Below, piece by piece: positions 4,259 through 60,712 of a stretch of 64,000 bases of DNA (positions are counted from its first letter, which is position 1; each line of letters begins with the position of its first letter). This stretch comes from an uncultured Candidatus Saccharibacteria bacterium. GTDB lineage: Bacteria > Patescibacteriota > Minisyncoccia > Phycocordibacterales > Phycocordibacteraceae. The notes under the pieces are model-generated. The model saw only the letters and a program-made list of their open reading frames with translations. It had not been told where the DNA came from and did not search any database. The DNA lies in contig CAYUQB010000001.1 of the NCBI GenBank assembly GCA_964446735.1, positions 380,460 through 444,459 on the forward strand, read 5' to 3'. The position numbers were made by a program, and so were the translations under genes.

Positions 4259-4852
4259 TTACCCGGCGGCGAAGGCCGGCGTCTTGCCGCGGAAGCCACT
4301 TTTGGGCTTCTCCTCCCCGCGGGCGGCGGCCTTGCGGGCCTTCTTGCCGCACGGGTTCTGCTTGCGAGGCGCGTGACCTGGCTCGAACATCGTTTCGGCG
4401 AGCGGCGGCTCCTCATTGCGCAGGGCCGCCACCAGTTCCGCCTCGATGGTGACCGGGTCGACGACCGGCAGCGGATCGACGCATGGCTTGGGCTCGGCTG
4501 ACCACTGGAGTTGCCGCGGCCCGAAGAGCGCGGTCAGCTCGGCGTTCGGGAAGACCAGGCCGCTGGTGGCGACGAAGTGGCGGATCATGCCCATCGTGGC
4601 GCGGTCGCCCAGGTCGTAGAGGACCTGGTAGGCGCGGTCGAGCGGCTCGGGCTCGCTGAAGGTCCAGCCGTTGCCGACGCGGACCATGATGACGACGAAG
4701 GCGTGCTCTTTCTCAAAGAGCCGGCCGGCCTCGAGCATCTGCCACAGCGTGGCTTCGTCGTAGACGGGCTGCTTGAAGCGCGAGATCAGGTAGCCGACGC
4801 CGAATTCGGACTTCGGCTTGGTGTAGCTGCTGGCATCCGGAATCTTGGACAT
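4259..4852 (-). CDS. hypothetical protein (GC-rich cassette between tuf and fusA) with basic C-terminal tail
   Basis: 197-aa ORF, locally elevated GC, C-terminus APRKQNPCGKKARKAAARGEEKPKSGFRGK; no family recognised. Confidence 0.45.
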   Translation of the reverse strand: MSKIPDASSYTKPKSEFGVGYLISRFKQPVYDEATLWQMLEAGRLFEKEHAFVVIMVRVGNGWTFSEPEPLDRAYQVLYDLGDRATMGMIRHFVATSGLVFPNAELTALFGPRQLQWSAEPKPCVDPLPVVDPVTIEAELVAALRNEEPPLAETMFEPGHAPRKQNPCGKKARKAAARGEEKPKSGFRGKTPAFAAG

Positions 4853-7770: not shown

Positions 7771-7977
7771 CTAGAGGCCGTGCGCCCTGCCGCCGCCGCG
7801 CGAGGCCTCGCCGCCCTTCTTGCCGGCGCTGGCCGCGAGGTCGCGGTCCTTCGCGAAGGACCGCTTTTCGCCGGGGACGGCCGCGCCGCCCTTCCTCGCG
7901 ATCTCGCGCCTGCGCTCAGGGTTCATTGCGGCGAAACCGCGCCTGGCGCGGGGCTTTCCGGTGGTGTCGGTCGGCAT
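7771..7977 (-). CDS. KGG-repeat stress-induced protein (YciG-like)
   Basis: RGFAAMNPERRREIARKGGAAVPGEK...SAGKKGGEASRGGG matches the KGG motif GFASMDPEKQREIASKGG; GC-rich. Confidence 0.55.
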   Translation of the reverse strand: MPTDTTGKPRARRGFAAMNPERRREIARKGGAAVPGEKRSFAKDRDLAASAGKKGGEASRGGGRAHGL

Positions 7978-8124: not shown

Positions 8125-8628
8125 ATGTTGATCGCTCGATTACAACATCATGAGCCCGAACAGCTAACCTCCCCGCTTGCTGTTTCGAAAGTGCGCGAAG
8201 GAGATTTCCCACGCTTCGCTCCTGGGTTTGAGGCCGACCTTATCTGCCTTTTGGGGCAGATCGAGGCCACCTTCCAGATCAGGGACCTGGAGTACGTGCC
8301 GTGGCAGATCGTTGCGGGCGTGGTGATCTTCGAACCTCCGAGCGGGTTTGCGCAGGCACCGTACGGCGCCCCGATCCAGTACCCGCAGAACGCACTCGCA
8401 TTCGAGGGAACCGCTCTCTCGTTCTGGTGCTGTCGGGGAAAGTTCGAATCAGACGCGTGGCTCCCGAGCTCCTGCCTGCGGCTGTGCGTCGTGGAGCTCG
8501 CCCGACTGCATCACGCGTATGCCTACGGGAAATGCGTGAACCCATGCATGATGCTCCACCTGGTGGCGCACTCGATGGGTCGTAGCGTCAAACGAAATGT
8601 CGAGGGCATCCGGAGTGTACTGACCTGA
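8125..8628 (+). CDS. hypothetical Cys/His-rich protein (GC-rich cassette)
   Basis: 167-aa ORF divergent from the KGG gene; followed by a bidirectional terminator; several overlapping ORFs in other frames because of the high GC. Confidence 0.35.
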   Translation: MLIARLQHHEPEQLTSPLAVSKVREGDFPRFAPGFEADLICLLGQIEATFQIRDLEYVPWQIVAGVVIFEPPSGFAQAPYGAPIQYPQNALAFEGTALSFWCCRGKFESDAWLPSSCLRLCVVELARLHHAYAYGKCVNPCMMLHLVAHSMGRSVKRNVEGIRSVLT

Positions 8629-9169: not shown

Positions 9170-9577
9170 TTACTTAGGCTTCTTAGCTCCGTAGCGCGAG
9201 CGGCCACGACGACGCTTATCAATACCGGCGGTATCAAGCTTGCCGCGGACGATGGTGTACTGGACACCAATGTCCTTCACGCGACCGCCGCGAAGCAGCA
9301 CCACTGAGTGCTCCTGGAGGTTGTGGCCCTCACCCGGAATGTAGGCGGTCACTTCCATACCGTTAGAAAGGCGTACACGAGCAATCTTGCGGATTGCGGA
9401 GTTTGGCTTACGAGGGGTCTTCGTGGTGACCTTCACGCACACACCGCGCTTAAAGGGTGCCGGGTAGTATTCCGGACGATTCTTGAGCGCGTTGAAGCCA
9501 CGCGAAAGAGCCGCAGTCCGGTCTTTGCGTGTCCGGTCCTTGCGGGACTTCTTCGTGAGCTGATTGATGGTGGCCAT
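9170..9577 (-). CDS. rpsL: 30S ribosomal protein S12
   Basis: [16 protein letters not shown]...[37 protein letters not shown]. Confidence 0.95.
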
Positions 9578-9695
9578 TGGTCAAATGAAAACCCGCCGTG
9601 CGGGATGGGCTCACTATATAGAAAGGCCTATATAAATGCAAACAGGGGTACCTTGCCGACTTCTCCATACCGGTCGATAATCCGGCCAGTGGGCG

Positions 9696-10940
9696 TTGTA
9701 CTCGACAATTCAACCTGCACATCGGGAGCACACGATGGATATCGCATCCGTTCAAACCGTTACCCTGCCCGATGGCAGGAAAGTGAACGTATCCGCCACC
9801 GAAGAGCCGTGGTGGAGTATGGACGACACGTCCGGCTACGTCGACCCGCACACCATAGCCGCAGATCCGGACCAGCCACGACGCTTCATGAAAGCGACCG
9901 ATCTGGAGGAGCTGGAGGAAAGCGTACGGGAATGTGGCGTCAGACAACACATCGTCGTCACTCCCCGACATCTGGCCCCGTGGGCTCGGGTCCTCCCCGA
10001 GGAAGAGCACTGCTTCTTCCTCAACGTGAGCGGACACCGCCGAAAGAAGTGCGCGGTCAAGTCCGGTCAACGCGCGGTTCCGATCCACATCCGGGTTTAC
10101 GCTGACCAAGATGCGCACGAACGCGATCGTTCGGTCCTGAATGCCGCGCACTCGGAGCTCACTGCCCTTGAAGAAGGGTGGGAGATGCTCAATCACCGCG
10201 AGCGTGGCTGGAAGATCGAGAAGATTGCGCGCACCTTCGGCAAGTCCGTGCCGGAAGTCTACCGGCGCATCAACCTGACGAGGCTTCATCCAGAGATCCA
10301 GGCGCTCTTGTCGCCCGAGCTTGAGGAGAAGAAGCGATTGTCGGTGGTGGTGGGCTCGGCGCTCGGCGGGCTCAAGGAACCGACGCGGGAGGAACTTCTC
10401 GACCTGTACCGGAAATTCGGCGAGGGCCTGCCCGGCTTCGAGCACCTGGCTGACCTCGATGAAGAAGAGGAGGACTTCGAGGAAGAATCGGACTCGAACG
10501 ACCGGGCCGCAGCCGACGTGCGCCGGTTTACCGCCCAGAAGCTTCTGTTGGCGTACACGGCCAGCAAGTACATGAGCGGAGTGCGCGCTGCAGCCTTCAT
10601 CAAGGACGAGTCGCACCACCTCGAAGCTTCTCGCGGACATTCCGGAGCGGGCCGACCGGTCACTCGGTTCGAGCCCCGCAAGCGCAAAGAGGTCATCAAG
10701 GGACTCGTGAAGCTTGTCACCGGTTCGCCGGTGATGGACTGGAACCCACGGGAGCTTGAGCGCATTTTCGATCTTTCCTCCCGCGAGGAGATCGAAGAAG
10801 TGATCGGGCAGCTCAAGAGCGTCACCGGATTCCTCGAGGGTCTCATCACGGTCCTCGAGCGACTCCGTGATCGTAAGCAGCCCATGCGTCCAGAAACACG
10901 CCGCATTATGGAGCAGCGAGCGCGGGCGGCGGGCGGCTGA
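9696..10940 (+). CDS. ParB/Srx-like nuclease-domain protein with HTH (atypical GHRR box)
   Basis: DPDQPRRFMKATDLEELEESVRECGVRQHIVV...FFLNVSGHRRKKCAVKSGQRAVPIHI resembles the ParB N-terminal box (GERRxRA becomes GHRRKKCA); GWKIEKIARTFGKSVPEVYRRINLTRL is a ParB-type HTH; acidic stretch LDEEEEDFEEESD; GC-rich; the antisense ORF 9450-10640 is judged spurious. Confidence 0.6.
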   Translation: MYSTIQPAHREHTMDIASVQTVTLPDGRKVNVSATEEPWWSMDDTSGYVDPHTIAADPDQPRRFMKATDLEELEESVRECGVRQHIVVTPRHLAPWARVLPEEEHCFFLNVSGHRRKKCAVKSGQRAVPIHIRVYADQDAHERDRSVLNAAHSELTALEEGWEMLNHRERGWKIEKIARTFGKSVPEVYRRINLTRLHPEIQALLSPELEEKKRLSVVVGSALGGLKEPTREELLDLYRKFGEGLPGFEHLADLDEEEEDFEEESDSNDRAAADVRRFTAQKLLLAYTASKYMSGVRAAAFIKDESHHLEASRGHSGAGRPVTRFEPRKRKEVIKGLVKLVTGSPVMDWNPRELERIFDLSSREEIEEVIGQLKSVTGFLEGLITVLERLRDRKQPMRPETRRIMEQRARAAGG

Positions 10941-10959
10941 TAGTTTGTACAGTAAATTG

Positions 10960-10983
10960 TGGGCGCGCCTCGCGGCGCGCCCA
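10960..10983. terminator. bidirectional GC hairpin between ParB-like gene and CYTH gene
   Basis: tgggcgcgcc-tcgc-ggcgcgccca. Confidence 0.5.
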
Positions 10984-10995
10984 CGTTAATTATGC

Positions 10996-19609: not shown

Positions 19610-21031
19610 CTATTCCTGGCGCCAATCTACGAATTGGAAGTCAGAAGAGGTGAATGGAGTAAAGGGCGGAGGACTCGTCGAGAGCTTGCGATCATAGGCA
19701 TCAATACGAGTTTGGTAACCACCGTTGCTCCCACTCCCGCACCCATTGGTCCATTTTGTTCCGGTACGCTTATTGGAAACCGTCGTTCCAAGAATCGTGA
19801 GCGTGGTACGTGGTTCCCACGAACTCGGGCAACTATAGAGATTCCTTCCAAATGCGCCGCTTTGCGCAATGAAAATACCATTGAGGGTCATCGTGCTCGG
19901 CGAGTTGGGTGTAATGAGAATATTCTTTTCGGCGATAACCGTGATCCCGTTCGTGCCATCAGTCGTGACGTAGGTGAGATTGCCCGGAAGCATGATGTTA
20001 GGGTCGACGCCTGAATGTACGGTGTCGGCAGCAATAACGGTCACCTTGGTGTTAACCGTACCCTCCACCCATACATGATCCTCAACGTAGATAACCGGAC
20101 AGGTCACCGGTATCGTACGGGTTTCATACAGAGTCTCGTTTCGAATACGGGTGTAGTCAGACGTATCTGAAGAACCGTCTACTGCCGCTTGAATGCTGGT
20201 GTTGTATTCATTTGTGACTCGGTACACGGACACCGTGTTATCAGCATTAAAAACAAGATGGTAGCCCTTGTAATACGAAACACCTCCACCGCCCGAGCTG
20301 TAGCGAGGATAGTAGATACCACCGTTATTCTGCACGACGGTCTTCACGGTACCAAAGTCAGCAGCAATAGCACTGAAATCCACCTGCGGCGTTGGGTAGC
20401 TCCAAAGATCCTGGTTTGGGCCTGCGCCGAACACCCCTGGCTGAACGGTCGTTGGGCTGCATCCGTAGGACGACGTGCACGACCAGGTAGCAAGTGAGCT
20501 CGTCACGGGAGCGTTCGCGGTACCATCCATGCGAACTCCTCCGTTTGAGTGATACGGTCCTGAAATAACGCGGTCGGAACCGGCCCAAACTGACGCATTC
20601 ACTATATAGGAATAGCGGGCCACCGAGGGTCGTGCGTAGCGTGCGTTCACGGTAGCAGAACTAGCACTCCCCTCTGCTCGCCCGGTCGATTCGAGATCGA
20701 TAGATGTAATCGATCCGCATGCAGTATTGCCCGTCACCGCAAGTGTAATTGTGCCTGCCGTACCCCCTTCCGGATCGCTAAAGGGAATCACGTACGGACC
20801 CGGTGCCCCCGTGCCGTTTTGTAGATCATCCGGGAAATGGGCGAGGTGCCATTTGTAGTATTCAATGCCGGCCTCAGCAATGGCGAGTCCCTTGCTTTGG
20901 TCTGTTTGTGACGATTGAAGTTTATTTTCGGTCAGCACGAAACTCGAGAGTGCGAAGATGACCATCAGAAACACCGACCCAAACACGAGGGCTAGAAGCA
21001 TCAAATATCCACGCGGGGAGGGAGTAACCAT
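19610..21031 (-). CDS. pilus-associated protein with prepilin-like N-terminus (no Glu5), Ser/Thr/Gly-rich
   Basis: MVTPSPRG|YLMLLALVFGSVFLMV N-terminus; in operon with pilins, pilC and pilB. Confidence 0.45.
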   Translation of the reverse strand: MVTPSPRGYLMLLALVFGSVFLMVIFALSSFVLTENKLQSSQTDQSKGLAIAEAGIEYYKWHLAHFPDDLQNGTGAPGPYVIPFSDPEGGTAGTITLAVTGNTACGSITSIDLESTGRAEGSASSATVNARYARPSVARYSYIVNASVWAGSDRVISGPYHSNGGVRMDGTANAPVTSSLATWSCTSSYGCSPTTVQPGVFGAGPNQDLWSYPTPQVDFSAIAADFGTVKTVVQNNGGIYYPRYSSGGGGVSYYKGYHLVFNADNTVSVYRVTNEYNTSIQAAVDGSSDTSDYTRIRNETLYETRTIPVTCPVIYVEDHVWVEGTVNTKVTVIAADTVHSGVDPNIMLPGNLTYVTTDGTNGITVIAEKNILITPNSPSTMTLNGIFIAQSGAFGRNLYSCPSSWEPRTTLTILGTTVSNKRTGTKWTNGCGSGSNGGYQTRIDAYDRKLSTSPPPFTPFTSSDFQFVDWRQE

Positions 21032-21033
21032 TA

Positions 21034-21609
21034 CTATCGTAAATTGCGGAGCGTTGCGGTCTCCTGCAAGGTAATGATATCAGGAGCGCGCATTGGATTG
21101 AGATCGACCATGATGGACGTGGTGATGGCTTCGATCAGTGATACGTCTATCGTCGATGAGGAAATCTCAGTACCCGTTGAATCGTAGTAGCGGAATAGGG
21201 GCGACGAGGTGCCATTGCGTACATAGGTGGCGATAGTCGATGTTGAAGTCGTTCCGGTATACTCCGGCGGATTGCCCGTTGCCTCGGTAATGGTTCGGTA
21301 GAATGTCTCACCGTCGAGAGAAAGTCGGATACGCTCCACCGAATTGTCGCCATCGACATCGCTATAAAACGTAATGGACGACGTGGCTGCGCTTTGGATA
21401 GGAAATGAGCCATCTTCGCCATATGCAGCTTGGCGCAGGTTCTCGAAAGAAATGCGCATACCGCGACGCGCACTATCAATAGCGGAAGTCTGCTGGAGAA
21501 TATAAGAATTCGTACGGTAAAAGTTCACGATGAGACTGTTGATCGTGATGCCCAGAAGCACCGTCACAGAGAGAAGAACCATAACTTCGATTAATGTGAG
21601 GCCGCGCAT
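21034..21609 (-). CDS. type IV pilin / pseudopilin (prepilin N-terminal methylation motif)
   Basis: MRGLTLIEVMVLLSV, a class-III signal G|LTLIE with Glu5; start moved to this internal Met. Confidence 0.65.
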   Translation of the reverse strand: MRGLTLIEVMVLLSVTVLLGITINSLIVNFYRTNSYILQQTSAIDSARRGMRISFENLRQAAYGEDGSFPIQSAATSSITFYSDVDGDNSVERIRLSLDGETFYRTITEATGNPPEYTGTTSTSTIATYVRNGTSSPLFRYYDSTGTEISSSTIDVSLIEAITTSIMVDLNPMRAPDIITLQETATLRNLR

Positions 21610-21619
21610 ATGGGATGTG

Positions 21620-23335
21620 TTATGGGAAGGATGCTGCATAGAAAAGATGGCCGGAAATGGTTACGTCGGTGTAGTTCGTAGTGGTGTATCCGGTCTTGGC
21701 GATCGTAATGGTATAGGTACCACTTGCGAGTCCTCCAAAATACGCGGTTCCGCAGGTGGACGTCGTAACGATTTCCGAACCGCTTGAGCTGTCAGTAAGC
21801 GTAACGGTAGCACCTGAAACACTCGCACCCGTAGTATCTCGTACCCACACGAGCGCACGATGCGTTGTCGCATCTCCTAAGTAGAGCGCAGCTGAATTGG
21901 TTGATCCAGGAGAAAGTGCGTACGGTGGGGCGGCACAAGCCTCAACGACATCATATCCGGTTATAGAAAACGTATAGGAGTCCCACTCAAGTGACAGTGG
22001 GGCTATGCCTGACGCATTCGTTGAGGTACTGAGTGTCGTCTTCAAAATAGGGGCACCACCACCCGTGGACCCGATAACCTTGGTGCCCGAGAGTGTGAAC
22101 GGAACATTCGGTTCGGGAACCGGGCCGACTCGCGAATTAAGGCTCCACGTATCAACTGATGGGGTACTCGACGCGTCAGTCGTGCTCATGGTCGCAACGA
22201 GCGAGAGTGATGGGTAGGTAGAAGTTGAAACAGTGGAGAGATCAATGGAGGTCGATGTAAACCCTGCACTGTTACCAGGCACATCGGCATCAGGAAGTAT
22301 CGTGCCAGCTGCGTCAGCGACCTGCACGCGCACAGTGGTATTACTCGGAGTCAGGAGTGTCGTACTTGCCGTAGTCCAGTACGCAAGCAACGCTGGAGCA
22401 ACTGCGGTTGAACGTGCCGATCCATTGGCGAGATAGCCACCCGCATCGCTTCCTAACTGAAGGCGGCCGCCCGACACCGTTGCGTTGGTGAGAGAGGCAA
22501 GTTGCGAGGAATCGGCAAACGTATCAGTAGTCGAGGTCGCACGTATGGGGTAGTAGGTTGCGAGCGTGAGTGTTGCGAGGGTGTCGATAGCAAACGTTGC
22601 GGTCGTTGTCGTATTTTCAACGACGGTGAAGTATCCCGGAGTGGGGTTCTGATTCACCGCATCGCGCGCATACGTCTGCGCGCTTGAGTAGCCATCCTTG
22701 GATACATATATCTGATATTGCGTTGATGTTGCCGCTCCACCCAGGTACACTGTTCCCGTCACATCCGAGAATGTTGTCACATCGATTGTCGGACTCGTGC
22801 TCGCATTTACTACCTGCACACTTGCACCAGCAACTGGGTCGCCAGTCGCATTCACGACCACGATCTTGAGCGTTCCTCCACCCGTAGTCGTCTCTATCGA
22901 AGCGGGCGCATACGTTGATACGAACGGAAGCTCATAGTACTTACCGCGTAGTTCGTAGGTAACTTCGACTTTTATTCTCTTATAGTCAGTAGTAATGCCG
23001 TTTGTGTCTGCGGCATCGCTCCCATCCGCAGGGTCATCTACGTATCCAATAAAGGTACGGACGCTATACGTAATACCGTTCATGGTCGTAGTCGCGTACT
23101 GCGGAACCACGCCCGCAGGAATGCCTCCAACCGTTCCTACTGAATCATAGGAAAGTGAGCGAACATACTCCATGTGCGTGTTCCCTACCGCAGTTGCACC
23201 GGCGCGAGCCTTCGCGACCGATGCGATGAGAAGCGAACTGCGCAGTAATCCGATCAGCGCAAGAAAAATAATGAGCACTAGCGTAGAACCAACGAGGACA
23301 TCAACCATCGAAAGGCCTCGAGGAGCAGCAGTCAT
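21620..23335 (-). CDS. large (571 aa) pilin-like protein, prepilin-type N-terminus with Asp at +5
   Basis: MTAAPRG|LSMVDVLVGSTLVLIIFLALIG then a Thr/Ser/Gly-rich beta-rich body; candidate tip adhesin or minor pilin. Confidence 0.5.
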   Translation of the reverse strand: MTAAPRGLSMVDVLVGSTLVLIIFLALIGLLRSSLLIASVAKARAGATAVGNTHMEYVRSLSYDSVGTVGGIPAGVVPQYATTTMNGITYSVRTFIGYVDDPADGSDAADTNGITTDYKRIKVEVTYELRGKYYELPFVSTYAPASIETTTGGGTLKIVVVNATGDPVAGASVQVVNASTSPTIDVTTFSDVTGTVYLGGAATSTQYQIYVSKDGYSSAQTYARDAVNQNPTPGYFTVVENTTTTATFAIDTLATLTLATYYPIRATSTTDTFADSSQLASLTNATVSGGRLQLGSDAGGYLANGSARSTAVAPALLAYWTTASTTLLTPSNTTVRVQVADAAGTILPDADVPGNSAGFTSTSIDLSTVSTSTYPSLSLVATMSTTDASSTPSVDTWSLNSRVGPVPEPNVPFTLSGTKVIGSTGGGAPILKTTLSTSTNASGIAPLSLEWDSYTFSITGYDVVEACAAPPYALSPGSTNSAALYLGDATTHRALVWVRDTTGASVSGATVTLTDSSSGSEIVTTSTCGTAYFGGLASGTYTITIAKTGYTTTNYTDVTISGHLFYAASFP

Positions 23336-23360
23336 GCGGATATGATACCGCGAGTATCGC

Positions 23361-24575
23361 CTAGATTTTCGACGACAGAGAGTAAATCGGACTGATCATC
23401 GCGAGTGCAAAGATACCTACCGCCACACCGATTACGAGCATGAGTATCGGCTCAATGATGGTGGAGAGATCTTTGGTACGGTCTTCAACATCCGTCTCGT
23501 AGTACTCCGCTACCTGCCCAAGCATGTCAGCAACTTTTCCGGTTTCCTCACCCACCGCGATCATATCGGCCATAAAGAAGGGATAGAGTTTCCCGTGTTC
23601 AGAGAAGGGAGCCGAGAGCGGGTCGCCCTTCTTCACGCGCTCACTCGCATCACTGACCACCCGACCGAATATGTTATCTCCCACAACCTCGGCAGCGATA
23701 TCGATGGCAGTGACCATTTCAACGCCAGAAGAGAGCAGTGAGGAAAGGGAACGTGCGGCACGAGCGGCAAATGTTTCGCGAACGAGTTCCCCAATGACTG
23801 GTATGCGGAGCGATACCGCAAGAATGATGCGATGCCCGAACCGTGAGTGCGAGAATATGAAGATCCCGCCAAATACCAGAATGAGCGCGAGAAATACGAG
23901 CCCGACGTTTTGTGCCATGAAGTCGGAACTGGCAATGATGATCCGAGTTGCAGTCGGAAGCGCAACCCCGAGCGATTTGAAGGTTGCTGAAAGAGTCGGC
24001 ACGACGTAGATCATCATCAGTACGGCGATGACCACAATGGCCGAAAGAATGATCCCTGGATAAATCATCGCGCCCCGAATCTTCTTCTCGAGTGTGAAGG
24101 AACGGTCCATCTGGCGTGCGACCACCCGAAGCGATTCAGCGAGCTTCCCCGATTCTTCGCCGGCCTTGGTCATCGAAATGAAGAGTCGCGAGAAGATATT
24201 TCGATGCTCAGCAAGGGCCTCATGAAATGCCATACCTTCTTTGATACGCTCTTCAAGCGATCCGACGATTTCTTTTAATCGTCTGTTACGCGTCTGCCGC
24301 GCAATGACCGAGAGTGCTCGAGAAAGCGTGAGGCCCGCCGAGAGCATGGCGGCAAGGTTTTTGGTAAAGGTGATGCGTTCCTCGGTCTTAACACCACTGC
24401 CAATCGTAATGTTCGCAATCTTCGAGATCGAAATGCCACCACCTCCCTCTTCAATGGCAAGGACTCGTCCTCCTTCTTTCTCTATATCTCCGTAAATAGT
24501 GAAGCGCGATGGCGCTTCCATAACGCGCGTCTCTTCTCCACCGTCTTCGCGTTTCATCTTCACGCGGTATTTCAT
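23361..24575 (-). CDS. pilC: type IV pilus assembly platform protein PilC (GspF family)
   Basis: 404 aa; two GspF repeats each with 3 TM segments; MAFHEALAEHRNIFSRLFISM...GEESGKL. Confidence 0.85.
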   Translation of the reverse strand: MKYRVKMKREDGGEETRVMEAPSRFTIYGDIEKEGGRVLAIEEGGGGISISKIANITIGSGVKTEERITFTKNLAAMLSAGLTLSRALSVIARQTRNRRLKEIVGSLEERIKEGMAFHEALAEHRNIFSRLFISMTKAGEESGKLAESLRVVARQMDRSFTLEKKIRGAMIYPGIILSAIVVIAVLMMIYVVPTLSATFKSLGVALPTATRIIIASSDFMAQNVGLVFLALILVFGGIFIFSHSRFGHRIILAVSLRIPVIGELVRETFAARAARSLSSLLSSGVEMVTAIDIAAEVVGDNIFGRVVSDASERVKKGDPLSAPFSEHGKLYPFFMADMIAVGEETGKVADMLGQVAEYYETDVEDRTKDLSTIIEPILMLVIGVAVGIFALAMISPIYSLSSKI

Positions 24576-24602
24576 AAAAAAATTCTAGCACGCAAAAAGC
24601 TC

Positions 24603-24634
24603 GGAGCCGGGTTTCTCGTTCGAGAAACCCGGCT
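24603..24634 (-). terminator. hairpin terminator after small GC-rich membrane ORF
   Basis: 14-bp stem gagccgggtttctc/gagaaacccggctc, then GCTTTTTGCG on the minus strand. Confidence 0.55.
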
Positions 24635-24658
24635 CACGTGCGGCCGATGGAGTGACCG

Positions 24659-24997
24659 CTAGCGCGCGCGAGCGCGCGAGCCGCCGAACAAGGGGGCGAA
24701 GAGGCCTCCGAGGTAGCTCGCGACGACGCCTAGAGCGAACGCAGCGCTGATGTCGTACCCGTCCTCATAGGCGAGGACATTGCGGCACAGCACCGCGCCG
24801 ATGACGCCCAGAAGGACGAAGACGCCTGATGCGAGCAGGCCCTCCGCCCTGATCTTCTGCGCGAGCCAGGTCCAGACGAGGCCCGCTCCCATGATGCCGA
24901 TGGCCCAGGGGATGAAGCCGCCGTCCACCACTGGTAGGCCAAGGGCGGTGCCGGCGAGCACCACTCCGAGTATGGCGGTTAAAACGAACTTGGACAT
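24659..24997 (-). CDS. small GC-rich membrane protein inserted between pilC and pilB
   Basis: 112 aa, 3-4 predicted TM helices, Gly/Ala/Leu-rich; own terminator. Confidence 0.45.
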   Translation of the reverse strand: MSKFVLTAILGVVLAGTALGLPVVDGGFIPWAIGIMGAGLVWTWLAQKIRAEGLLASGVFVLLGVIGAVLCRNVLAYEDGYDISAAFALGVVASYLGGLFAPLFGGSRARAR

Positions 24998-25086
24998 TCT
25001 CTCTATCCTCGCTGAGTCGCGCGTCCATAGCGAACGTTTTCATGCAACTCCTGTCCGCGTTATACCACTCTCACGCTCGGACGCAA

Positions 25087-26841
25087 TTAGCCGTCGTTCA
25101 CTGCGCGAAGCACTTCCTCAACCGAAGTGATGCCCCGTGCTGCTTTGTAAATTCCGTCTTCAAGCATAGTGAGCATGCCTTCTTTGCGTGCCTGCGCTTC
25201 AATGGCGTCGGGGGATGCACTATGCAGCACGAGATCACGAATGGTAGGTGATACGGTCAGAATCTCATGAATGCCAATGCGGCTCTTGTAGCCATCCTCG
25301 CATTCAGCTGAAGGTTTCGGATGGTAAAACGGGAGCGTATCGAGCTTGGTGCCTTCCTTCACCAACTTCTCCTCTTTAAGGGAGGTAAACGCCGCTTCGA
25401 ACTTATCCGCGGTCGCCACTTTATCACGCGCTTGTTGGTCGAGCGTGTACTCTTCTTTGTCATCGCACAGACGACGCACGAGCCGCTGTCCCACGACGAG
25501 TCTGAGCGTGGAGACGAGGAGGAAGGGTTCCACTCCCATGTCCATGAGACGAGGGATGGCACCAGCAGCCGAGTTGGTGTGAATCGTCGAAAGCACGATG
25601 TGACCAGTGAGCGCCGCATTGATCGCAAGCGATGCCGTTTCGCTATCGCGGATCTCACCCACCATGATGATGTTTGGGTCCTGACGCAGCAGTGCGCGCA
25701 GGCCTGCCGCAAAGGTCATACCAATTTGTGGGTTCACCTGCGTTTGGTTGACCCGTTTCATTTGGTATTCAATTGGATCCTCGATGGTGGAAATGTTTAC
25801 GTCCGGCGTATTGAGAATATCGAGAATGGTATAGAGCGTTGTCGTCTTGCCGGAACCGGTCGGACCCGATACCAAAATGATGCCGGTCGTCTGTTTCGTC
25901 GCCATATGAATCCGCTCCAGGGTTTCTCCGTGGAACCCGAGCGCTTCAAGAGTGAAGCCTTCGCCCGTCTCGCGCAGAAGGCGCATCACGATCTTCTCGC
26001 CGTAGTAGGTCGGAAGAAGAGAAACACGGAAGGAAACCTTCTCACCATCGGTCTCCATTTTGAAGCGACCGTCCTGCGGGAGACGCTTCTCATCGAGCTT
26101 TAGGTTCGAGAGCACTTTGATACGTGCGGTGATACCAGGTCCTGCATTCTTCGGAAGCGTCATCGCGTCGTGGAGCATACCGTCAATTCGGTATCGCACG
26201 AGCGTCGCCTCTTCCATGGGCTCAATGTGAATGTCAGACGCGTCCTGAATGATTGCATGACGCAGCAATGTGTCCACGATACGAACGATTGGGAGATCTT
26301 CCGCCATCTTCTTGAGGTCTTCACCCGACGCATCCTCACCGATGGCTTCTTTCACTAAATTAATGCGCCCAGCTTCGGTGGTGATAAGATCGCCGAATTC
26401 TTCTTTGAGAGACTTCTGATATTGCAGGAGGGCGTGCTTGAGCGACTCATCATCCGTAAGTCGGGGCTGAATATTAAAGCCAGTCTTTTTACGTACCGAG
26501 TCGATTGCGGGCAGATCCTGTGTATCGAGCATTGCTACTTCCAGATCGGAACCATCCTTACGAAAGGCGACGATGCTGTGAGTGCGCGCAATAGGCTCTG
26601 GAATAAGTGAAAGCACTTCAAGCGGGATCTTCTTGTCCTTCAGATTCACGAACGGAATGCCAAGAACGTACGCCTTAATGCGACGGAGCGCATCTTGGGT
26701 AAGCGCGCCTTGCGACACGAGAATGTCGCCGATTGATTGCTGACGTTCTTTCGCTTCTGTGTCAGCCGCTTCAACATCTTTGCGCGGCACGAGACCAGAA
26801 TCGAGAATGAACGACTTCAACTCGCTTTCAGAAACTTGCAT
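25087..26841 (-). CDS. pilB: type IV pilus assembly ATPase PilB (GspE family)
   Basis: Walker A LVSGPTGSGKTTTL, Asp box, His box IRDSETASLAINAALTGH; start taken at MQVSESELKSFILD. Confidence 0.9.
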   Translation of the reverse strand: MQVSESELKSFILDSGLVPRKDVEAADTEAKERQQSIGDILVSQGALTQDALRRIKAYVLGIPFVNLKDKKIPLEVLSLIPEPIARTHSIVAFRKDGSDLEVAMLDTQDLPAIDSVRKKTGFNIQPRLTDDESLKHALLQYQKSLKEEFGDLITTEAGRINLVKEAIGEDASGEDLKKMAEDLPIVRIVDTLLRHAIIQDASDIHIEPMEEATLVRYRIDGMLHDAMTLPKNAGPGITARIKVLSNLKLDEKRLPQDGRFKMETDGEKVSFRVSLLPTYYGEKIVMRLLRETGEGFTLEALGFHGETLERIHMATKQTTGIILVSGPTGSGKTTTLYTILDILNTPDVNISTIEDPIEYQMKRVNQTQVNPQIGMTFAAGLRALLRQDPNIIMVGEIRDSETASLAINAALTGHIVLSTIHTNSAAGAIPRLMDMGVEPFLLVSTLRLVVGQRLVRRLCDDKEEYTLDQQARDKVATADKFEAAFTSLKEEKLVKEGTKLDTLPFYHPKPSAECEDGYKSRIGIHEILTVSPTIRDLVLHSASPDAIEAQARKEGMLTMLEDGIYKAARGITSVEEVLRAVNDG

Positions 26842-27353
26842 ATCTATACCAAAAGTATAGCGCGTAACGTGTAACACGCTTGCGATAAAAAGAATAATTG
26901 TGAATCGGAACCCTAGGTTCGCTCTGGTTTCGTTCCAGCAATTTCCAATCGAAAAGTTTTATTGATCCGTGAAACTCGAGCAAGTGCAGAATGTCTCTTC
27001 TGGGTGTCGGCTACTGTATGAAATTGAATAACTTTTTAGCGATGCGCCCAACTACTTGGGGGGAGAACTTACTATCGACTCCTACATTCCGCTACGCGTG
27101 AAATTATTCTTGCTTCAATAATTAATATGAGCGTGAAAGATCTCTTTATACCAGCAGGGATATCGGACTCGTATTAATTTCAAATGGAAGCAGCATGAAA
27201 CGTTTATACACTCAGGACGCGAAGATAAGTTCCGCTCCATCTTGTCTGGATTGACGCCATACCTATATATGGTATCCTTCCGCTATCTGAGATGTCCGCA
27301 CCCGCGGGCATTTCTCTTTAAAAAGGTGCGACAACTGAATAACGCATGGGCTT

Positions 27354-37424: not shown

Positions 37425-38888
37425 ATGTCCTATCCTATTCCACCAGAGGTAAGTTCCGTAGCCACGAACCTTCGTAAAGAAGGCTTTGAGGCGTACCTCG
37501 TAGGTGGCTGCGTACGTGACCTATTTCTCAAACGAAGCCCTAAAGACTGGGATATTACTACAAATGCAAAACCTGAGGACATCCAGCGCATTTTCCCCGA
37601 CTCATTTTATGAGAATGACTACGGCACAGTTGGGGTTAAAACCGGATCAGAAGACCCTACCCTTTCGATTATTGAAGTTACCCCCTATCGCACAGAATCG
37701 GGGTATTCCGACAAGCGTAGGCCTGACGCCGTTGTGTTCGGCGAAAGTCTCGAGGGGGACCTGGCGCGCCGTGATTTCACCATAAACGCCATTGCCCTCG
37801 ACGAGTCTAAAGGACAAATCATTGATCCGTATAAAGGACAAAAGGACATCGAGGCCAAAGTGCTCCGCACCGTAGGTGACCCGAGTGAAAGATTTGAAGA
37901 GGACGCTCTCCGACTTATGCGGGCTGTACGCCTACTCGCTGAGCTTGGTTTTGCTCTCGATGCTGAAACTGCGAGCGCGATACAGGAAAAAGCCCAAAAT
38001 CTGAGGCATATTTCACGTGAAAGGATTAGGGACGAATTTGTCCGAATTCTTGAATCTGACCAGCCAATGATGGCTCTCGCACTCGCTCAAAAGCTTGGTT
38101 TGCTGGAATTCATCGCTCCTGACGTTTCACGTGGAATAGGTGTAGATCAGAATCAAGCTCACAGCTATGACGTTTTTGAGCACAATTTGCGGGCTCTGCA
38201 GCATGCTGCCGACAAGGGTTGGGCTCTGGATCTTCGGCTCGCAGCGCTTTTTCATGACATTTCTAAGCCTGAGACTCGTAGATGGTCTGATGAAAAGAGG
38301 GACTGGACATTCCATGGTCACGAAGTAGTTGGAGCACGCGTCGCTAAAAGGGCGCTAGAAGACCTCCGTTTTTCACGTGAAATCATCGAAAAAGTGACTA
38401 AATTGGTTCGTTGGCACATGTTCTTCTCTGATCCGGAACAAATAACTCTTTCTGCTGTTAGGCGAATGATAAGGAACGTCAATCAGGAAAACATATGGGA
38501 TTTGCTTAACTTGCGGATTTGCGACCGTATTGGCACGGGTCGGCCAAAGGAGCAGCCGTTCCGCTTCAGGAAGTACAAGGCGATGGTGGAAGAAGCGCTC
38601 AGAGACCCAATTTCCGTCGGAATGCTCAAAACCGATGGTAGCCGGATTATGAGCCGCTTTCACGTGGAACCGGGTCCCAAAATAGGCCATATTCTTCACG
38701 CCTTGCTTGAGGAAGTCCTTGAGGACCCTCAAAAAAACTCCGAAGAGCTTCTCGATAAGAGAACGGAGGAGCTCCTAAGCCTCTCAGAGGCTGAACTTGC
38801 AAAGCGGGGCGAGGCTGGAAAACGTAAGAAAAGCGAGGAAGAGGAGAGGGAAGTCCAGGAAATACTCAAAAAACACCACGTGGCCTAG
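37425..38888 (+). CDS. cca: CCA-adding tRNA nucleotidyltransferase (PolyA-pol head + HD domain)
   Basis: AYLVGGCVRDLFL, DWDITT, RRDFTINA; HD domain FHDISKPE; 487 aa. Confidence 0.85.
   Translation: MSYPIPPEVSSVATNLRKEGFEAYLVGGCVRDLFLKRSPKDWDITTNAKPEDIQRIFPDSFYENDYGTVGVKTGSEDPTLSIIEVTPYRTESGYSDKRRPDAVVFGESLEGDLARRDFTINAIALDESKGQIIDPYKGQKDIEAKVLRTVGDPSERFEEDALRLMRAVRLLAELGFALDAETASAIQEKAQNLRHISRERIRDEFVRILESDQPMMALALAQKLGLLEFIAPDVSRGIGVDQNQAHSYDVFEHNLRALQHAADKGWALDLRLAALFHDISKPETRRWSDEKRDWTFHGHEVVGARVAKRALEDLRFSREIIEKVTKLVRWHMFFSDPEQITLSAVRRMIRNVNQENIWDLLNLRICDRIGTGRPKEQPFRFRKYKAMVEEALRDPISVGMLKTDGSRIMSRFHVEPGPKIGHILHALLEEVLEDPQKNSEELLDKRTEELLSLSEAELAKRGEAGKRKKSEEEEREVQEILKKHHVA
38011..38022. 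repeat. parS-like palindrome TTTCACGTGAAA (copy 1, inside cca)
   Basis: perfect 12-bp palindrome; core of the canonical ParB-binding parS tGTTtCACGTGAAACa. Confidence 0.5.
38125..38136. repeat. degenerate parS-like site TTTCACGTGGAA (inside cca)
   Basis: 11/12 match to the repeated palindrome. Confidence 0.3.
38371..38382. repeat. parS-like palindrome TTTCACGTGAAA (copy 2, inside cca)
   Basis: perfect 12-bp palindrome, in a different codon frame and context than copy 1. Confidence 0.5.
38658..38669. repeat. degenerate parS-like site TTTCACGTGGAA (inside cca)
   Basis: 11/12 match. Confidence 0.3.
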
Positions 38889-38889
38889 C

Positions 38890-38901
38890 TTTCACGTGAA
38901 A
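38890..38901. repeat. parS-like palindrome TTTCACGTGAAA (copy 3, just after cca stop)
   Basis: perfect 12-bp palindrome. Confidence 0.5.
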
Positions 38902-38914
38902 TACCTCAAATAGA

Positions 38915-38967
38915 AAGAGGCCCTACGAAATGGACATAAGCTTTACGTGCATTTCGTAGGGCCTCTT
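38915..38967. repeat. 18-bp perfect inverted repeat with 17-nt loop (long hairpin) downstream of cca
   Basis: aagaggccctacgaaatg ... catttcgtagggcctctt; could act as a terminator but is unusually long; flanked by parS-like sites. Confidence 0.5.
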
Positions 38968-39077
38968 CACTTTCGATGCATACCGCGTTTGGAGGCGTAA
39001 AATTGGAGCTGGGGCTTGTTTTGGTTTCCTCCAGGAGATATGTGGGTTTGCATCGATCTTCAAAGAACTTGATGCGC

Positions 39078-39089
39078 TTTCACGTGAAA
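39078..39089. repeat. parS-like palindrome TTTCACGTGAAA (copy 4, intergenic)
   Basis: perfect 12-bp palindrome. Confidence 0.5.
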
Positions 39090-40113: not shown

Positions 40114-41031
40114 CTATTGCTGACGGGAGTGGAACCGTTTATGAATTTCGCGTAAATGTGAGTCGGTAACGTGTGTATAGATCTGAGTAGTATTGATAGA
40201 CGCGTGCCCAAGAAGGGCCTGAACGCTACGTAAATCGGCGCCGTTAGATAAAAGATCGGTGGCGAACACATGACGAAGCGTGTGGGGCGTGACCTTGGTG
40301 GTAATGCCTGCTTTGGCAGCGTACGTCTTAATGTGTCGTTGCACATCTCGGGGGGTAATGCGGTGGAGTCGATTTGGTCGCCCTTCGACAAAAAGAGCTT
40401 CTTCCATGTCTTTGCGTTCTTTTAGGTACTCCATGACCGCAGCTTTCGCAGCAGGCGAGAGAAAGACTACTCGAACTTTCTCACCCTTACCTCGCACGGA
40501 CAGGTCATCGCGGGATAGATCGATATCAGCATTCAAGGCACAAAGCTCTGCGACACGTAGGCCAGTTGAGAAAAGAAGCTCCAATATGGCTTTATCGCGC
40601 AACAACCTAATACGTTTGTCTTGATCTTCTTCCTTCTTCAGCGCGTCCTCTGGAGCACGAAGGAGTCGAGTTAGTTCCTGAGCAGTGACGACGTCGATCT
40701 GTCGTTCGGGGAGTTTTGCAAGTTCAATACGTTCCGGATTTAGGCCCTCAATACCACGCCTACGCAGATACTTGAGGAATGCTCGCAGTGCGATGAGGTA
40801 GTAGTTTTGCGTGCGACGCTTCATGGTCGCATTCCCCGTACCCGGCTGACGATTGAGCCAGAGTCGGAATTCGCGAATTCGATCTTCCGTAATGTCTCCG
40901 ACCTGCTCGATCTTCATTTGATCGAAGAACACTGCAAGGTAGTGGTCGTAGTTTTCGACTGTTTTCACGGCTCGCCCCTTCTCAATCTCGGTGTATTCGA
41001 GAAATTCGCGCTTCATTTGAGCCGCATTCAT
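40114..41031 (-). CDS. xerC: tyrosine site-specific recombinase XerC/XerD family
   Basis: RDKAILELLFSTGLRVAEL, HTLRHVFATDLLSNGADLRSVQALLGHASINTTQIYTHV with catalytic R..HxxR..Y; start set at internal MNAAQMKREF (ORF track opens at 41145). Confidence 0.8.
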   Translation of the reverse strand: MNAAQMKREFLEYTEIEKGRAVKTVENYDHYLAVFFDQMKIEQVGDITEDRIREFRLWLNRQPGTGNATMKRRTQNYYLIALRAFLKYLRRRGIEGLNPERIELAKLPERQIDVVTAQELTRLLRAPEDALKKEEDQDKRIRLLRDKAILELLFSTGLRVAELCALNADIDLSRDDLSVRGKGEKVRVVFLSPAAKAAVMEYLKERKDMEEALFVEGRPNRLHRITPRDVQRHIKTYAAKAGITTKVTPHTLRHVFATDLLSNGADLRSVQALLGHASINTTQIYTHVTDSHLREIHKRFHSRQQ

Positions 41032-41068
41032 AGCAAAAGTATACCAAGCAGAGTGCGCACAATATGGA

Positions 41069-41093
41069 GCTGCCCGGGGAGGACCCGGGCAGC
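41069..41093 (-). terminator. hairpin after GC-rich ORF 41102-41437
   Basis: gctgcccggg-gagga-cccgggcagc. Confidence 0.45.
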
Positions 41094-41101
41094 CACAAGG
41101 T

Positions 41102-41437
41102 TCATTGTGCAGCAACGCGAAGCGCTTGCGGTGCGATGCACTCAACGACCCAACATCCGGCGCCGCATCTCATGAGCGCAACGTGCTCGAACATCAGGTG
41201 CGCTTCCTGCTGAGCAGGGAAGTGCCAGTAGCAGAACTGTTCGTCCTGACACTGCGGTGGTGCAAGGAAGCGGTCGAACCCCGCGGTCTCGGCAACCGGC
41301 ACGAGCACCACAAAGCGGTCGATGTCGCTTTGCAAGCCAGCAAAGTGTCGAGCGGAGAAGTCTGCGACATCCTCTTCGTCGAGGGAGGGGCAGACTTCGC
41401 TCGGACACCAAGAAATTATTCGTACAAAAGTGTCCAT
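41102..41437 (-). CDS. hypothetical Cys-rich protein (GC-rich cassette)
   Basis: ORF 41102-41488, probably starting at MDTFVRIISW; elevated GC; no family recognised. Confidence 0.35.
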   Translation of the reverse strand: MDTFVRIISWCPSEVCPSLDEEDVADFSARHFAGLQSDIDRFVVLVPVAETAGFDRFLAPPQCQDEQFCYWHFPAQQEAHLMFEHVALMRCGAGCWVVECIAPQALRVAAQ

Positions 41438-49018: not shown

Positions 49019-50008
49019 GTGGCGTATTCTAACCGAACCATCGGCATCATCATCGCTTCGGCTATCTCGATAGTCCTTATTATCGGTGCCGTTTTGATCT
49101 CAGGTCCACTTCCATTCAAATGGAATCGGGTGAGCGCCACCTCAACGCATGATCTCCTCGTTTCATATGCATCTAAGGACACGGACGCGGATGGGTTGCC
49201 TGATTGGCAGGAGGCACTCTACGCAACAGACCCGAACGACGCCCACTCGGTTCGGGCTGACATCTTAGACGGGCAGGCCGTTGCCCAAGGATTGGTTGCG
49301 CCGAAGTTTGCTACAGCAACAACGACAACTGACACCACTGCAATACCGGGAGTAGAGAGCGGTCCTGATACCCTGACCGATCAGTTCGCACGTGAGCTTT
49401 TCACACAGTATGTGTCGCAGGCAGGGAATTCAACACCAACTCCCGAGACGATCGCTTCGTTTGTTGAACAGGCAGTTGCGAATCTCACCGCACGCAATTC
49501 AAGCGTAAACGAATTTGATCAGAGTGACGTTAAGACGAGTGGTACCGGAGAGGACGCATTGCTTGTGTACGCTGCACAAATTGAAGGAGTGTTTGCCAAA
49601 AATACAGCTCCATCTGAAAAAAGTGAAATCGAGTATCTCGCCGATGCGGTGCAGAAGAATGACAAGGCGGCACTCAAGGAAGTGAAGCGTATTGGTGCAA
49701 CGTACACCTCGCTCGCAAAAGGGTATGTTGCAACCGCGGTGCCGTCCGAGGCAGTGACCCCTCATCTTGAAGTGGCGAATGCACTCGCCCGTATTGGTAC
49801 CGATATTACCGACTTCTCAATGATGGATACGGATCCGCTTCGTGCCTATTTTGGTCTTGCCAAGTATCAAGAAGACGTCCCGAAGCTTGTGGCGGGTCTG
49901 AAGGCGCTGAATGCCGTGTACACGAGCGAAGGGGTAGTGGTCCCTGAAGGAACTTCCGGATTCTACTTCTTCAGACTCCTTACCCGCTCAGCAACACAAG
50001 AACTATGA
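49019..50008 (+). CDS. membrane-anchored hypothetical protein (first gene of T4SS-like locus)
   Basis: N-terminal TM IGIIIASAISIVLIIGAVLI; DTDADGLPDWQE calcium-binding-like repeat. Confidence 0.4.
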   Translation: MAYSNRTIGIIIASAISIVLIIGAVLISGPLPFKWNRVSATSTHDLLVSYASKDTDADGLPDWQEALYATDPNDAHSVRADILDGQAVAQGLVAPKFATATTTTDTTAIPGVESGPDTLTDQFARELFTQYVSQAGNSTPTPETIASFVEQAVANLTARNSSVNEFDQSDVKTSGTGEDALLVYAAQIEGVFAKNTAPSEKSEIEYLADAVQKNDKAALKEVKRIGATYTSLAKGYVATAVPSEAVTPHLEVANALARIGTDITDFSMMDTDPLRAYFGLAKYQEDVPKLVAGLKALNAVYTSEGVVVPEGTSGFYFFRLLTRSATQEL

Positions 50009-51507: not shown

Positions 51508-51511
51508 ACGT

Positions 51512-54500: not shown

Positions 54501-54559
54501 CGAAGACGAAACGCTCGAAAGCAACAACTGACGATGGTAGCGACGACGGCACAACATGA
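51512..54559 (+). CDS. giant polytopic membrane protein, candidate VirB6/TrbL-like channel component
   Basis: signal/anchor, ~270-aa extracytoplasmic domain, 6-7 TM helices, ~450-aa charged C-terminal domain; ORF opens at 51479, start set at MATYLHII. Confidence 0.4.
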   Translation: MATYLHIIRSLGLGILIAVSLLLFAAPSANAADPAIAIPNGKTLKPNGQVCKAINPLTGMQDGSVALVLETGGFCQLQFTDGTQLTVEFSAGKQTQTGTLRDANGKTIGTPETKSWIEGAQEAVDQAAAATTAAEKSAVTAARAAVAAPSTGARNTPLSANEATALYKKVEYLSSRNLITIAERDKLNSIIFAAGTGGASQAQLDSVRKMGTAVDTLNANVGRSADVNTAAKEAASAQQETAAEAEKSCNIVSFNLGTCLQSIMWAIIKKIGLFFLYLAAFFAGFAGFLFNWIIYITVFQFGNLIGNNAGMLAAWGVLRDIGNLVLLFGFIFMGLSTILSLPGNEFTARRALPALIIFAILMNFSLFAAEAVIDTSNALGTTLYRQAANGMCGEGESMLTCVTQKGIGGRIMQITGIASIFSLDPDKEDVIANDDLGGAIEVIGLTIFAAVTAFVFLAAVFMLIARAIMLAFLMAVSPIGFAGMAIPPLHRYASMWWEQLLKQSFFAPIYILLVLISIKFMEGIIVALNAAAGAGSTTEVSTLASAFSRSGITNVSMVVNFMLITGFMLGAVIIAKSMGAAGASGATRMAGAVVFGGMARASNFGIGGASRLARLGVQRTLGKSDSAFVRGIGSGASAFLKGGEKLNTDLRGVAGKRGADLFGAPAQKASYDDVQNKIQEVREGIRANQATFDRDASLQRLRSEVGRKGGLSPESERFLATLSADEIAHDHDLEHKIGDLAPLLSASQFENLTRSDKVPQKLKDEARRERYAELKDAILNSRKGGIRKMTPKDLEQFFLSPIYAELKTENEEALKEFVTLMNGGQYDTLRASTVLTNAQRSEIKRWRDDDRFNFGEFNDLRSGKQVEFKQAISMDGNRKPLYVDPSTGRVTEDVTSVKATRIDRTLDDLNTADRAKLEDKILAREEVFTRLAPEDFAAIQRADKLEPPQRRAVSAHLNAVFNEKSARGDRFRAYRDTMSDNAWKSMKAFYQLSTDKAKTKRSKATTDDGSDDGTT

Positions 54560-55332: not shown

Positions 55333-55378
55333 AAAATTTTGTGCATACCGCTGCTAGAGCGCGGTATACTTACGTACG

Positions 55379-55801: not shown

Positions 55802-55804
55802 GAT

Positions 55805-56443: not shown

Positions 56444-56444
56444 T

Positions 56445-58265: not shown

Positions 58266-58274
58266 TAGCGAGAT

Positions 58275-59743: not shown

Positions 59744-59744
59744 T

Positions 59745-60710: not shown

Positions 60711-60712
60711 CT

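Follow-up and report, generated by a model that had tools for sequence, protein, structure and literature searches.

The stretch analysed here is a 64 kb window (the whole stretch of DNA that was examined) of contig CAYUQB010000001.1, within a genome of 517 kb (516,752 bp), and it carries at 9735-10940 (+) a gene for an orphan ParB-like protein. The product combines a ParB N-terminal domain with a ParB-type helix-turn-helix (HTH) DNA-binding domain, and it belongs to a coherent, uncharacterised family that has been seen so far only in metagenome-assembled genomes (MAGs) of Patescibacteria (Parcubacteria). Orphan ParBs are already known as a class, and this family, marked by a GHRR box, is a variant within them; what is new is an orphan-ParB family that is restricted to one lineage, carries a distinctive substitution in the catalytic site and has two modules of its own. 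We consider it probable that the protein is a ParA-independent, nucleotide-gated DNA clamp of the ParB type, with slow or no hydrolysis.

Fold and nucleotide pocket of the ParB-like protein

When the protein was searched for a ParB/Srx fold, Pfam ParB_N (PF02195) scored 37.3 bits, above its curated cut-off of 26.3 (E 2.8e-9). The NCBIfam ParB, Noc, PRTRC and plasmid ParB models all matched the first ~200 residues with scores below their cut-offs: 44.9 bits against 58.45 for the canonical chromosomal ParB model TIGR00180 (parB_part), 38.3 against 315 for Noc (TIGR04285), 35.1 against 278.6 for the PRTRC-system ParB (TIGR03734), and 26 against 640 for plasmid partition (PRK13832). A phmmer search of the PDB sequences gave Caulobacter ParB 6t1f as the best match (E 5.9e-12), followed by Thermus Spo0J (1.6e-7) and then B. 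subtilis ParB. The AlphaFold2 monomer model, built from 39 family sequences, was confident, with a predicted local distance difference test (pLDDT) score of 90.1. The structural comparison with Spo0J, KorB and Noc proposed in the initial annotation returned a ParB fold, as Foldseek matched the first ~200 residues to ParB, Noc (7NFU) and KorB (8QA9) structures with E-values between 1e-10 and 1e-7; the matches to sulfiredoxin and PadC were much weaker. Alignment to 15 canonical ParBs with hhalign gave 99.8% probability over 241 columns, and its extension into the canonical C-terminal domain was rejected as unreliable, because the model of that region is helical. The ParB-type HTH named in the same annotation was thus borne out by the PDB sequence and hhalign comparisons, together with a sub-threshold Pfam match. 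A full DNA-binding domain follows the ParB domain, and the protein is therefore more than a ParB/Srx nuclease-like domain on its own. The parts of the gene and its product are the following, all on the + strand:

9735..10940, +, ParB-like gene, 401 aa plus stop (open reading frame, identity to public protein P0001)
9735..9854, +, family-specific N-terminal extension, residues 1-40 (alignment, model pLDDT 80-98)
9864..9884, +, box I DPDQPRR, with Q47 and R49 equivalent to Caulobacter Q58 and R60
10029..10043, +, box II SGHRR, with H101 in place of the catalytic Glu (Caulobacter E102), and R102 and R103 equivalent to R103 and R104
10137..10160, +, box III LNAAHSEL, with L135 in place of E135, N136 invariant, and H139 in place of Arg
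10206..10304, +, ParB-type helix-turn-helix, residues 158-190, recognition helix GKSVPEVYRRINLTRL
10416..10520, +, acidic, poorly ordered loop, residues 228-262 (model, composition)
10521..10937, +, family-specific basic helical C-terminal domain, residues 263-401, isoelectric point (pI) 10.5 (model)

The residues of the nucleotide pocket were mapped by alignment to Caulobacter ParB and read against a published alanine scan (PMC8367383). In that organism, R60A, R103A, R104A, N136A, R139A, G79S and S74A abolish the binding of cytidine triphosphate (CTP); Q58A and E135A bind CTP and have lost hydrolysis; and E102A binds CTP, closes, entraps DNA and barely dissociates, i.e., it is 'clamp-locked' and shows no hydrolysis (PMC8367383). 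The CTP-binding residues R60, R103, R104, N136, S74 and G79 are kept in our protein as R49, R102, R103, N136, S63 and G68. Among the hydrolysis residues, Q58 is kept as Q47, whereas E102 is replaced by His101 and E135 by Leu135. The variant box GHRRKKCA reported in the initial annotation is indeed present (VSGHRRKKCAV), and the replacements extend through the family: the E102 position is His in 72/76 sequences, and the E135 position is Leu in most members, this protein included. The family is therefore naturally without both of the glutamates that were mutated in Caulobacter E102A and E135A and retains the CTP-binding residues. Since the binding residues are conserved and the catalytic glutamates are replaced, the pattern suggests that the pocket is a nucleotide-binding switch with slow or no turnover.

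Family, private modules and genomic surroundings

A word-indexed protein search found only three relatives, at 35-48% identity, and a HMMER scan with a profile of those relatives gave 83 cluster representatives at E<=1e-30, most of them 360-410 aa long and matched end to end. Four loci came from species-representative genomes, and the three of these that are labelled belong to Parcubacteria, Patescibacteria or Paceibacterota MAGs; with 17 further loci from metagenomes, found with a profile of 14 sequences, there were 21 related loci in total. IMG/VR contained just two distant relatives, which matched the N-terminal part only. Across the family, R49, G68, G100, R102, R103, P116, Y122, N136, L181, L184 and G211 are invariant, and Q47, P48, S99, H101 and others are nearly so. 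The GHRR box is the signature of the family: of the 76 member sequences that extend over the motif, 72 have it, and GERR was found in 39/56 of the more distant ParB-fold matches of the same search. A sister family of 430-510 aa proteins (P0091-P0130) shares the N-terminal W..G.VP extension, the LN of box III and a 'P....RL' segment past the HTH; unlike the GHRR family, it mostly has GERR, and it ends in another conserved tail, Y..LWD.G.L.FQ. A literature search on ParB in Patescibacteria or on the GHRR box found nothing.

Two modules are private to the family. The first, residues 1-40, is modelled as three beta strands, carries conserved LPdG, WW and sGY motifs, and replaces the LG-R/K-GL peptide of canonical ParBs, which is the definition of the N-terminal ParA-binding motif (10.1101/2025.10.10.680097). 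This motif was searched in 39 family members and was present in none, the N-terminus of our protein being MDIASVQTVTLPDGRKVNVSATEEPWW... The second module is the C-terminal domain, residues 263-401, which is all-helical in the model, with one helix of 31 residues. Modelled alone, it reached a pLDDT of 87, and comparison of this model with the PDB gave no fold match; Pfam likewise had no match beyond residue ~215 (228 in the numbering of the 414-aa open reading frame), and no ParB C-terminal dimerisation domain. By analogy, we presume that this domain is a dimerisation module. Between it and the DNA-binding region lies a low-confidence loop (residues 228-262) with 15 D/E and 1 K/R, which interrupts the part alignable to the canonical ParB profile and varies in length and sequence across the family. 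Both flanking parts are basic, with a pI of 9.9 for the DNA-binding region and 10.5 for the C-terminal region.

Our protein finds its best matches, in sequence and in fold, among the chromosomal ParB/Spo0J proteins (Caulobacter 6T1F/7BM8, B. subtilis 6SDK, Thermus 1VZ0), with which it shares the CTPase fold, the HTH, the helix order, the QPR of box I, the two arginines of box II and the Asn of box III. Unlike them, it has GHRR for GERR, LN for EN and the recognition helix GKSVPEVYRR instead of GKSRSHVAN, it has neither parA nor LG-R/K-GL, and it carries the acidic insertion, the beta extension at its N-terminus and, at the other end, a helical domain in which Pfam detects no ParB C-terminal domain.

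The gene is real. The open reading frame spans 9696-10940 on the + strand and would encode 414 aa counted from TTG; the likely start is, however, the ATG at 9735, giving 401 aa. This start is backed by a Shine-Dalgarno sequence 6 nt ahead, by the public protein P0001, which begins there and is 100% identical to the 401-aa product, and by the N-termini of all the family members, which align to it. The borders of the gene are marked by these features:

9613..9681, both strands, promoter-like region that separates the divergent rpsL and ParB-like genes, + strand TTGCCG-17-GATAAT, - strand TTTGCA-18-TATAGT
9724..9728, +, Shine-Dalgarno GGGAG, read in the sequence 6 nt before the ATG
10958..10985, no strand assigned, GC-rich hairpin, likely bidirectional terminator (folding)

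The gene and rpsL (9170-9577, -) are transcribed divergently, and on the far side a CYTH-domain gene runs towards the ParB-like gene. The spacer to rpsL is 157 bp long and has one promoter-like site per strand (2 sites in the scan, 0.3 expected), both of which are consensus matches only. The hairpin starts 18 bp past the gene end, between the convergent genes, and has an 11-12 bp GC stem (-29.4 kcal/mol, z = -4.3); a classical T-run is absent, and it is likely to be a bidirectional terminator for the ParB-like and CYTH genes. The GC content of the gene is 0.618, and 0.746 at third codon positions (GC3), and that of the whole window is 0.533. The initial annotation had described a gene of ~60% GC beside rpsL, with its own terminator and a product with a long acidic/helical C-terminal region, and each of these points agrees with our data, the last with the refinement that an acidic loop precedes a basic helical region.

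The genomic context gave no sign of a ParA partner. A deviant Walker A motif, KGGxGK[ST], was found in none of the six frames of the window, in agreement with the earlier statement that parA is not adjacent, and no second ParB-fold protein is encoded in these 64 kb. In the 21 related loci, we detected neither a deviant Walker A ATPase nor a second ParB-fold protein; as a control, the same test detected ParA next to four canonical parB loci. The protein therefore answers to the description of an orphan ParB, i.e., it has the ParB-CTPase fold, is encoded outside a parAB operon and is without the ParA-binding motif, as had been proposed from the ParB fold, the variant box II and the absence of an adjacent parA. 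Orphan ParBs outside parAB operons have been documented as widespread, and the definition of Kaljevic et al. 2025 fits the protein; the main text of that work makes no mention of Patescibacteria, of the candidate phyla radiation (CPR) or of a His-for-Glu box II, and does not describe the N- and C-terminal modules of the GHRR family (10.1101/2025.10.10.680097).

All-against-all clustering of the neighbours in the related loci revealed no recurrent partner. Of the neighbours listed for 14 related loci, those that could be identified by eye are housekeeping genes (ftsA/ftsZ, nrdAB, glmS and others); IMP dehydrogenase, ABC transporters, CYTH proteins and small hypotheticals also occur next to the gene. 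Inspection by eye of these listed neighbours showed no integrase, transposase or phage gene, and the Pfam-annotated neighbourhood in the window itself has no integrase or transposase. The PADLOC-DB defence models matched 0 families at E<=1, and PHROGs matched generic 'ParB-like partition protein' families only. The scattered, non-syntenic distribution suggests an accessory rather than a universal gene. In two relatives, an ftsA-ftsZ pair divergently adjoins the ParB-like gene (L004 1520-5290 and L029 7354-11140); this is probably one shared arrangement and not independent evidence for a link to cell division.

In most related loci the gene is GC-richer than its own locus. Its GC3 tops that of the neighbours in 5/13 loci and is unremarkable in the others, and the value of 0.75 in our window is near those of tuf, rpsG and rpsL next door (0.68-0.72). 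Recent horizontal transfer, considered from the GC content, was rejected, because the argument from composition is weak when such a GC3 is common to tuf, rpsG and rpsL and is the highest in only 5/13 loci.

Some other features of the window were observed. Three small genes are wedged among tuf, fusA and rpsG of the str operon, at 4259-4852 (-), 7771-7977 (-) and 8125-8628 (+), and they resemble insertions into an operon that is normally compact. The GC3 is extreme in two of them, 0.93 in the gene of a KGG-repeat stress protein and 0.90 in that of a 197-aa protein. Pfam gave no match for the 197-aa protein or for the third, a 167-aa open reading frame. A type IV pilus block at 19610-26877 (-) includes a PilB-like ATPase (T2SSE, 25087-26877), a PilC-like platform protein (T2SSF, 23361-24575) and three large proteins that resemble pilins and have hydrophobic N-terminal segments. 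The Rfam scan of the window identified only four tRNAs.

A parS-like cluster near the origin

About 28 kb from the ParB-like gene, the window contains a cluster of sites that resemble the bacterial centromere sequence parS:

38011..39089, no strand assigned, six parS-like 12-mers, candidate loading site (pattern count)

The pattern TTTCACGTGAAA, with <=1 mismatch, has 6 copies in the window against 0.26 expected, all of them within this interval, and 0/100 shuffles reached 6. The sites are the 12-mers TTTCACGTG(A/G)AA at 38011, 38125, 38371, 38658, 38890 and 39078, and they occur nowhere else in the window. Four are inside the gene for the CCA-adding enzyme (cca), in frame-compatible codons for ISRE, VSRG, FSRE and FHVE, and two are in the 412-bp spacer ahead of xth and a xerC/D-like recombinase gene. 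This gene, for a XerC/D-type tyrosine recombinase with Phage_integrase and SAM-like N domains (40114-41145, -), adjoins xth and the cluster.

An overlapping Logan contig, which ends ~240 bp beyond the window within dnaA, placed the start of dnaA near 63322 (+), running off the window. Next to dnaA lie yidC (61948-62673, -) and rnpA (62685-63002, -), and on its right side the window ends in the replication-origin region. The cluster is ~24 kb from dnaA, which in a 517 kb genome is the usual place of a chromosomal centromere. DnaA boxes are not enriched near the cluster, and no parAB was found beside it or on the window side of yidC/rnpA/dnaA. A run of membrane and secretion genes at 49019-61951 (+), adjoining the origin, resembles a type IV secretion or conjugation-like system; its members include a 1026-aa TrbL/VirB6-like protein (a weak match), a TraC-like protein (55805-56443), a VirB4/DUF87 ATPase (56310-58265) and several open reading frames with no family match.

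Compared with canonical parS (TGTTNCACGTGAAACA), the 12-mer corresponds to the inner part, and the outer guanine-1 is present in just 2/12 half-sites of the cluster. In Caulobacter, guanine-1 is read by R173, a residue described as 'absolutely conserved' in ParB orthologues (PMC7383237), and this position is Val in our protein. The joint loss of the Arg and of guanine-1 is the best argument for this protein as the reader of the sites, and it is suggestive only. Sites of this kind are not unique to the window, since one metagenomic locus, L045 (230-289), has a normal parA-parB pair with two parS sites (GTTTTCACGTGAAAAC) just upstream of parA in which guanine-1 is absent. Taking these comparisons together with the position of the cluster, the link between the protein and the six sites, raised as an alternative in the initial annotation, is putative and, in our estimation, rather doubtful. 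Binding sites close to the gene itself were also considered and rejected, as the 21 related loci and our own showed neither a parS-like site (within 10 kb of the 21 related genes) nor a repeated palindrome.

Candidate roles and significance

According to the mechanism that we favour, the protein would dimerise via its C-terminal helices, by analogy with what a clamp requires, and would contact DNA through the HTH, and the binding of a nucleoside triphosphate, most likely CTP, would shut the N-terminal gate. With slow or no hydrolysis, the resulting clamps would be long-lived, like those of the Caulobacter E102A mutant; they would stay closed for long because both catalytic glutamates are missing. 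The role of such a protein would be chromosome organisation near the origin or local silencing, and not ParA-driven partition. As for its loading, no candidate was identified other than the six clustered sites near the origin, which might serve this purpose although we would not count on it; otherwise, the protein would have sites of its own.

Several observations weigh against this mechanism. The Pfam match to HTH_ParB is sub-threshold, with 16.4 bits against 22.6. Within the pocket, His139 stands where Caulobacter needs R139 for CTP binding, a position that is Arg in most family members, and the Caulobacter mutants carry Ala where the family carries His and Leu; His101 could act as a substitute catalytic residue and might restore some catalysis. 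The nucleotide, most likely CTP, could also be ATP or GTP. Dimerisation and gate closure rest on analogy, the model being a monomer, and the activities are predicted from sequence and model. On the side of DNA recognition, the canonical parS-contact residues compared were Q162, G170, K171, S172, R173, N178, G201 and R204, and 3/8 positions are kept (G170/K171/S172 as G169/K170/S171). R173 is replaced by Val and N178 by Arg; in the alignments, Q162 and R204 are lost and G201 (by hhalign) is still a small residue, the placement of these three being uncertain. Family members also differ widely at the exposed positions of the recognition helix, unlike canonical ParBs. Moreover, the search of the 21 related loci and our own for a repeated palindrome near the gene gave none, the repeat in L028 being a hairpin.

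A different account is that the protein is the centromere-binding protein of a genome that has lost canonical parAB, and that it reads the six sites without ParA, e.g., for the loading of structural maintenance of chromosomes (SMC) complexes or for origin organisation. We regard it as doubtful, if possible. It draws on the cluster, which is beyond chance and close to dnaA, on the fact that no other ParB-fold protein is encoded in the window and no parAB stands by the cluster or the origin, and on the match between the scarcity of guanine-1 and the Val at the R173 position in a protein that keeps G-K-S and, as far as the uncertain hhalign placement goes, a small residue at G201. S. pneumoniae, whose ParB is a canonical GERR protein, resembles this situation in having a ParB with no ParA and several parS near oriC. 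In that species, an orphan parB without parA is accompanied by four parS near oriC, and the ParB-parS complexes recruit SMC; its parS (AGTTTCACGTGAAACT) keeps guanine-1, unlike the cluster in our window (PMC7022226). Chromosomal parB was detectable in only 19% of Paceibacterales species, which fits a loss, yet it was found in 89-100% of species for most of the Patescibacteria orders in the same survey (10.1101/2025.10.10.680097, Table S1). Also opposed to this account are the core of the sites, which is that of canonical parS and is most simply explained by a canonical ParB encoded outside the window; the replacement of N178, the apparent loss of Q162 and R204 (placement uncertain) and the variable recognition helix; the absence of parS-like sites within 10 kb of any of the 21 related genes; and the presence of sites without guanine-1 in L045, which has a normal parA-parB. 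A broader form of the idea is that a Patescibacteria-specific ParB lineage has replaced canonical ParABS with a built-in 'clamp-locked', ParA-independent centromere/origin clamp that reads a shortened 12-bp parS. Such a site, without the outer G:C pair, would match a protein that has lost the arginine reading it; we nevertheless hold this proposal to be unlikely.

The protein could instead be an accessory regulator of the ParB type, like KorB, VirB or BisD, which silences or activates genes from lineage-specific sites of its own, the cluster being served by a canonical ParB encoded elsewhere. This is a possibility to be taken seriously, although we lean against it. Noc, KorB, VirB and BisD all use the ParB fold and an HTH outside partition; the KorB and Noc structures match our protein about as well as ParB does, the recognition helix differs among the members, as expected for lineage-specific operators, and the patchy, non-syntenic distribution together with the anomalous GC3 in some loci suggests an accessory gene. 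CTP-dependent ParB-like regulators are, in addition, established (10.1101/2025.10.10.680097). Against a regulator stand the lack of an operator-like repeat near the gene in any locus examined and the absence of a KorA-like partner and of a conserved regulated neighbour. Unlike in the KorB system, no KorA-type partner is conserved among the listed neighbours and the context is chromosomal and housekeeping; unlike Noc, for which the score was 38.3 against 315 bits, the protein has an N-terminus predicted to be beta and no membrane-targeting amphipathic helix. A degenerate ParB, i.e., a plain HTH DNA-binding protein whose nucleotide pocket is no longer a switch, would account for the changes of E102 to His, E135 to Leu and R139 to His, and it has a precedent in PadC, a ParB-like protein without noticeable CTPase activity (PMC8367383). 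The strict conservation of R49, R102, R103, N136, S63 and G68 in the whole family indicates selection on the pocket, and we find degeneration improbable.

The suggestion that the protein is a ParB-like nuclease or the remnant of a mobile or defence element, made in the initial annotation, was the least favoured by our results, and we give it very little credence. In its favour, the gene stands isolated and has a higher GC content than the neighbours on its right, and orphan ParBs have been noted to be linked often to mobile elements. An origin in a mobile or defence element is not supported, given the lack of a PADLOC match and of a full-length relative on viral contigs in IMG/VR, the housekeeping neighbours, and the absence of integrase, transposase and phage genes among the Pfam-annotated neighbours in the window and among those recognised by eye in 14 related loci. 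A nuclease role does not agree with the complete ParB HTH DNA-binding domain or with the motif itself: the catalytic Cys of Srx resides in a G-C-H-R motif, whereas the equivalent motif here is S-G-H-R-R, with no Cys. The nucleotide-gated, ParA-independent clamp thus remains the role that we think probable.

ParB is the founding CTP-dependent molecular switch, and the timing of clamp opening by hydrolysis is still studied with engineered mutants such as E102A. The GHRR family is a natural experiment in this respect, since the nucleotide-binding residues are conserved and both hydrolysis glutamates are systematically replaced, in hosts that have tiny genomes and of which some relatives at least are without parAB. 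With a canonical parAB in another part of the genome, the protein would be just one more uncharacterised orphan ParB; if the gene encodes the sole ParB-fold protein of the genome, the idea that it reads parS would lead. Should the protein bind CTP and clamp DNA, it would show a ParB working without ParA and with slow or no hydrolysis. Should it also read the 12-bp sites, this would be a matched change of protein and DNA, an Arg lost and a guanine lost, at a centromere that is otherwise conserved across bacteria, and it would tell how the ultra-small Patescibacteria organise their origin region.

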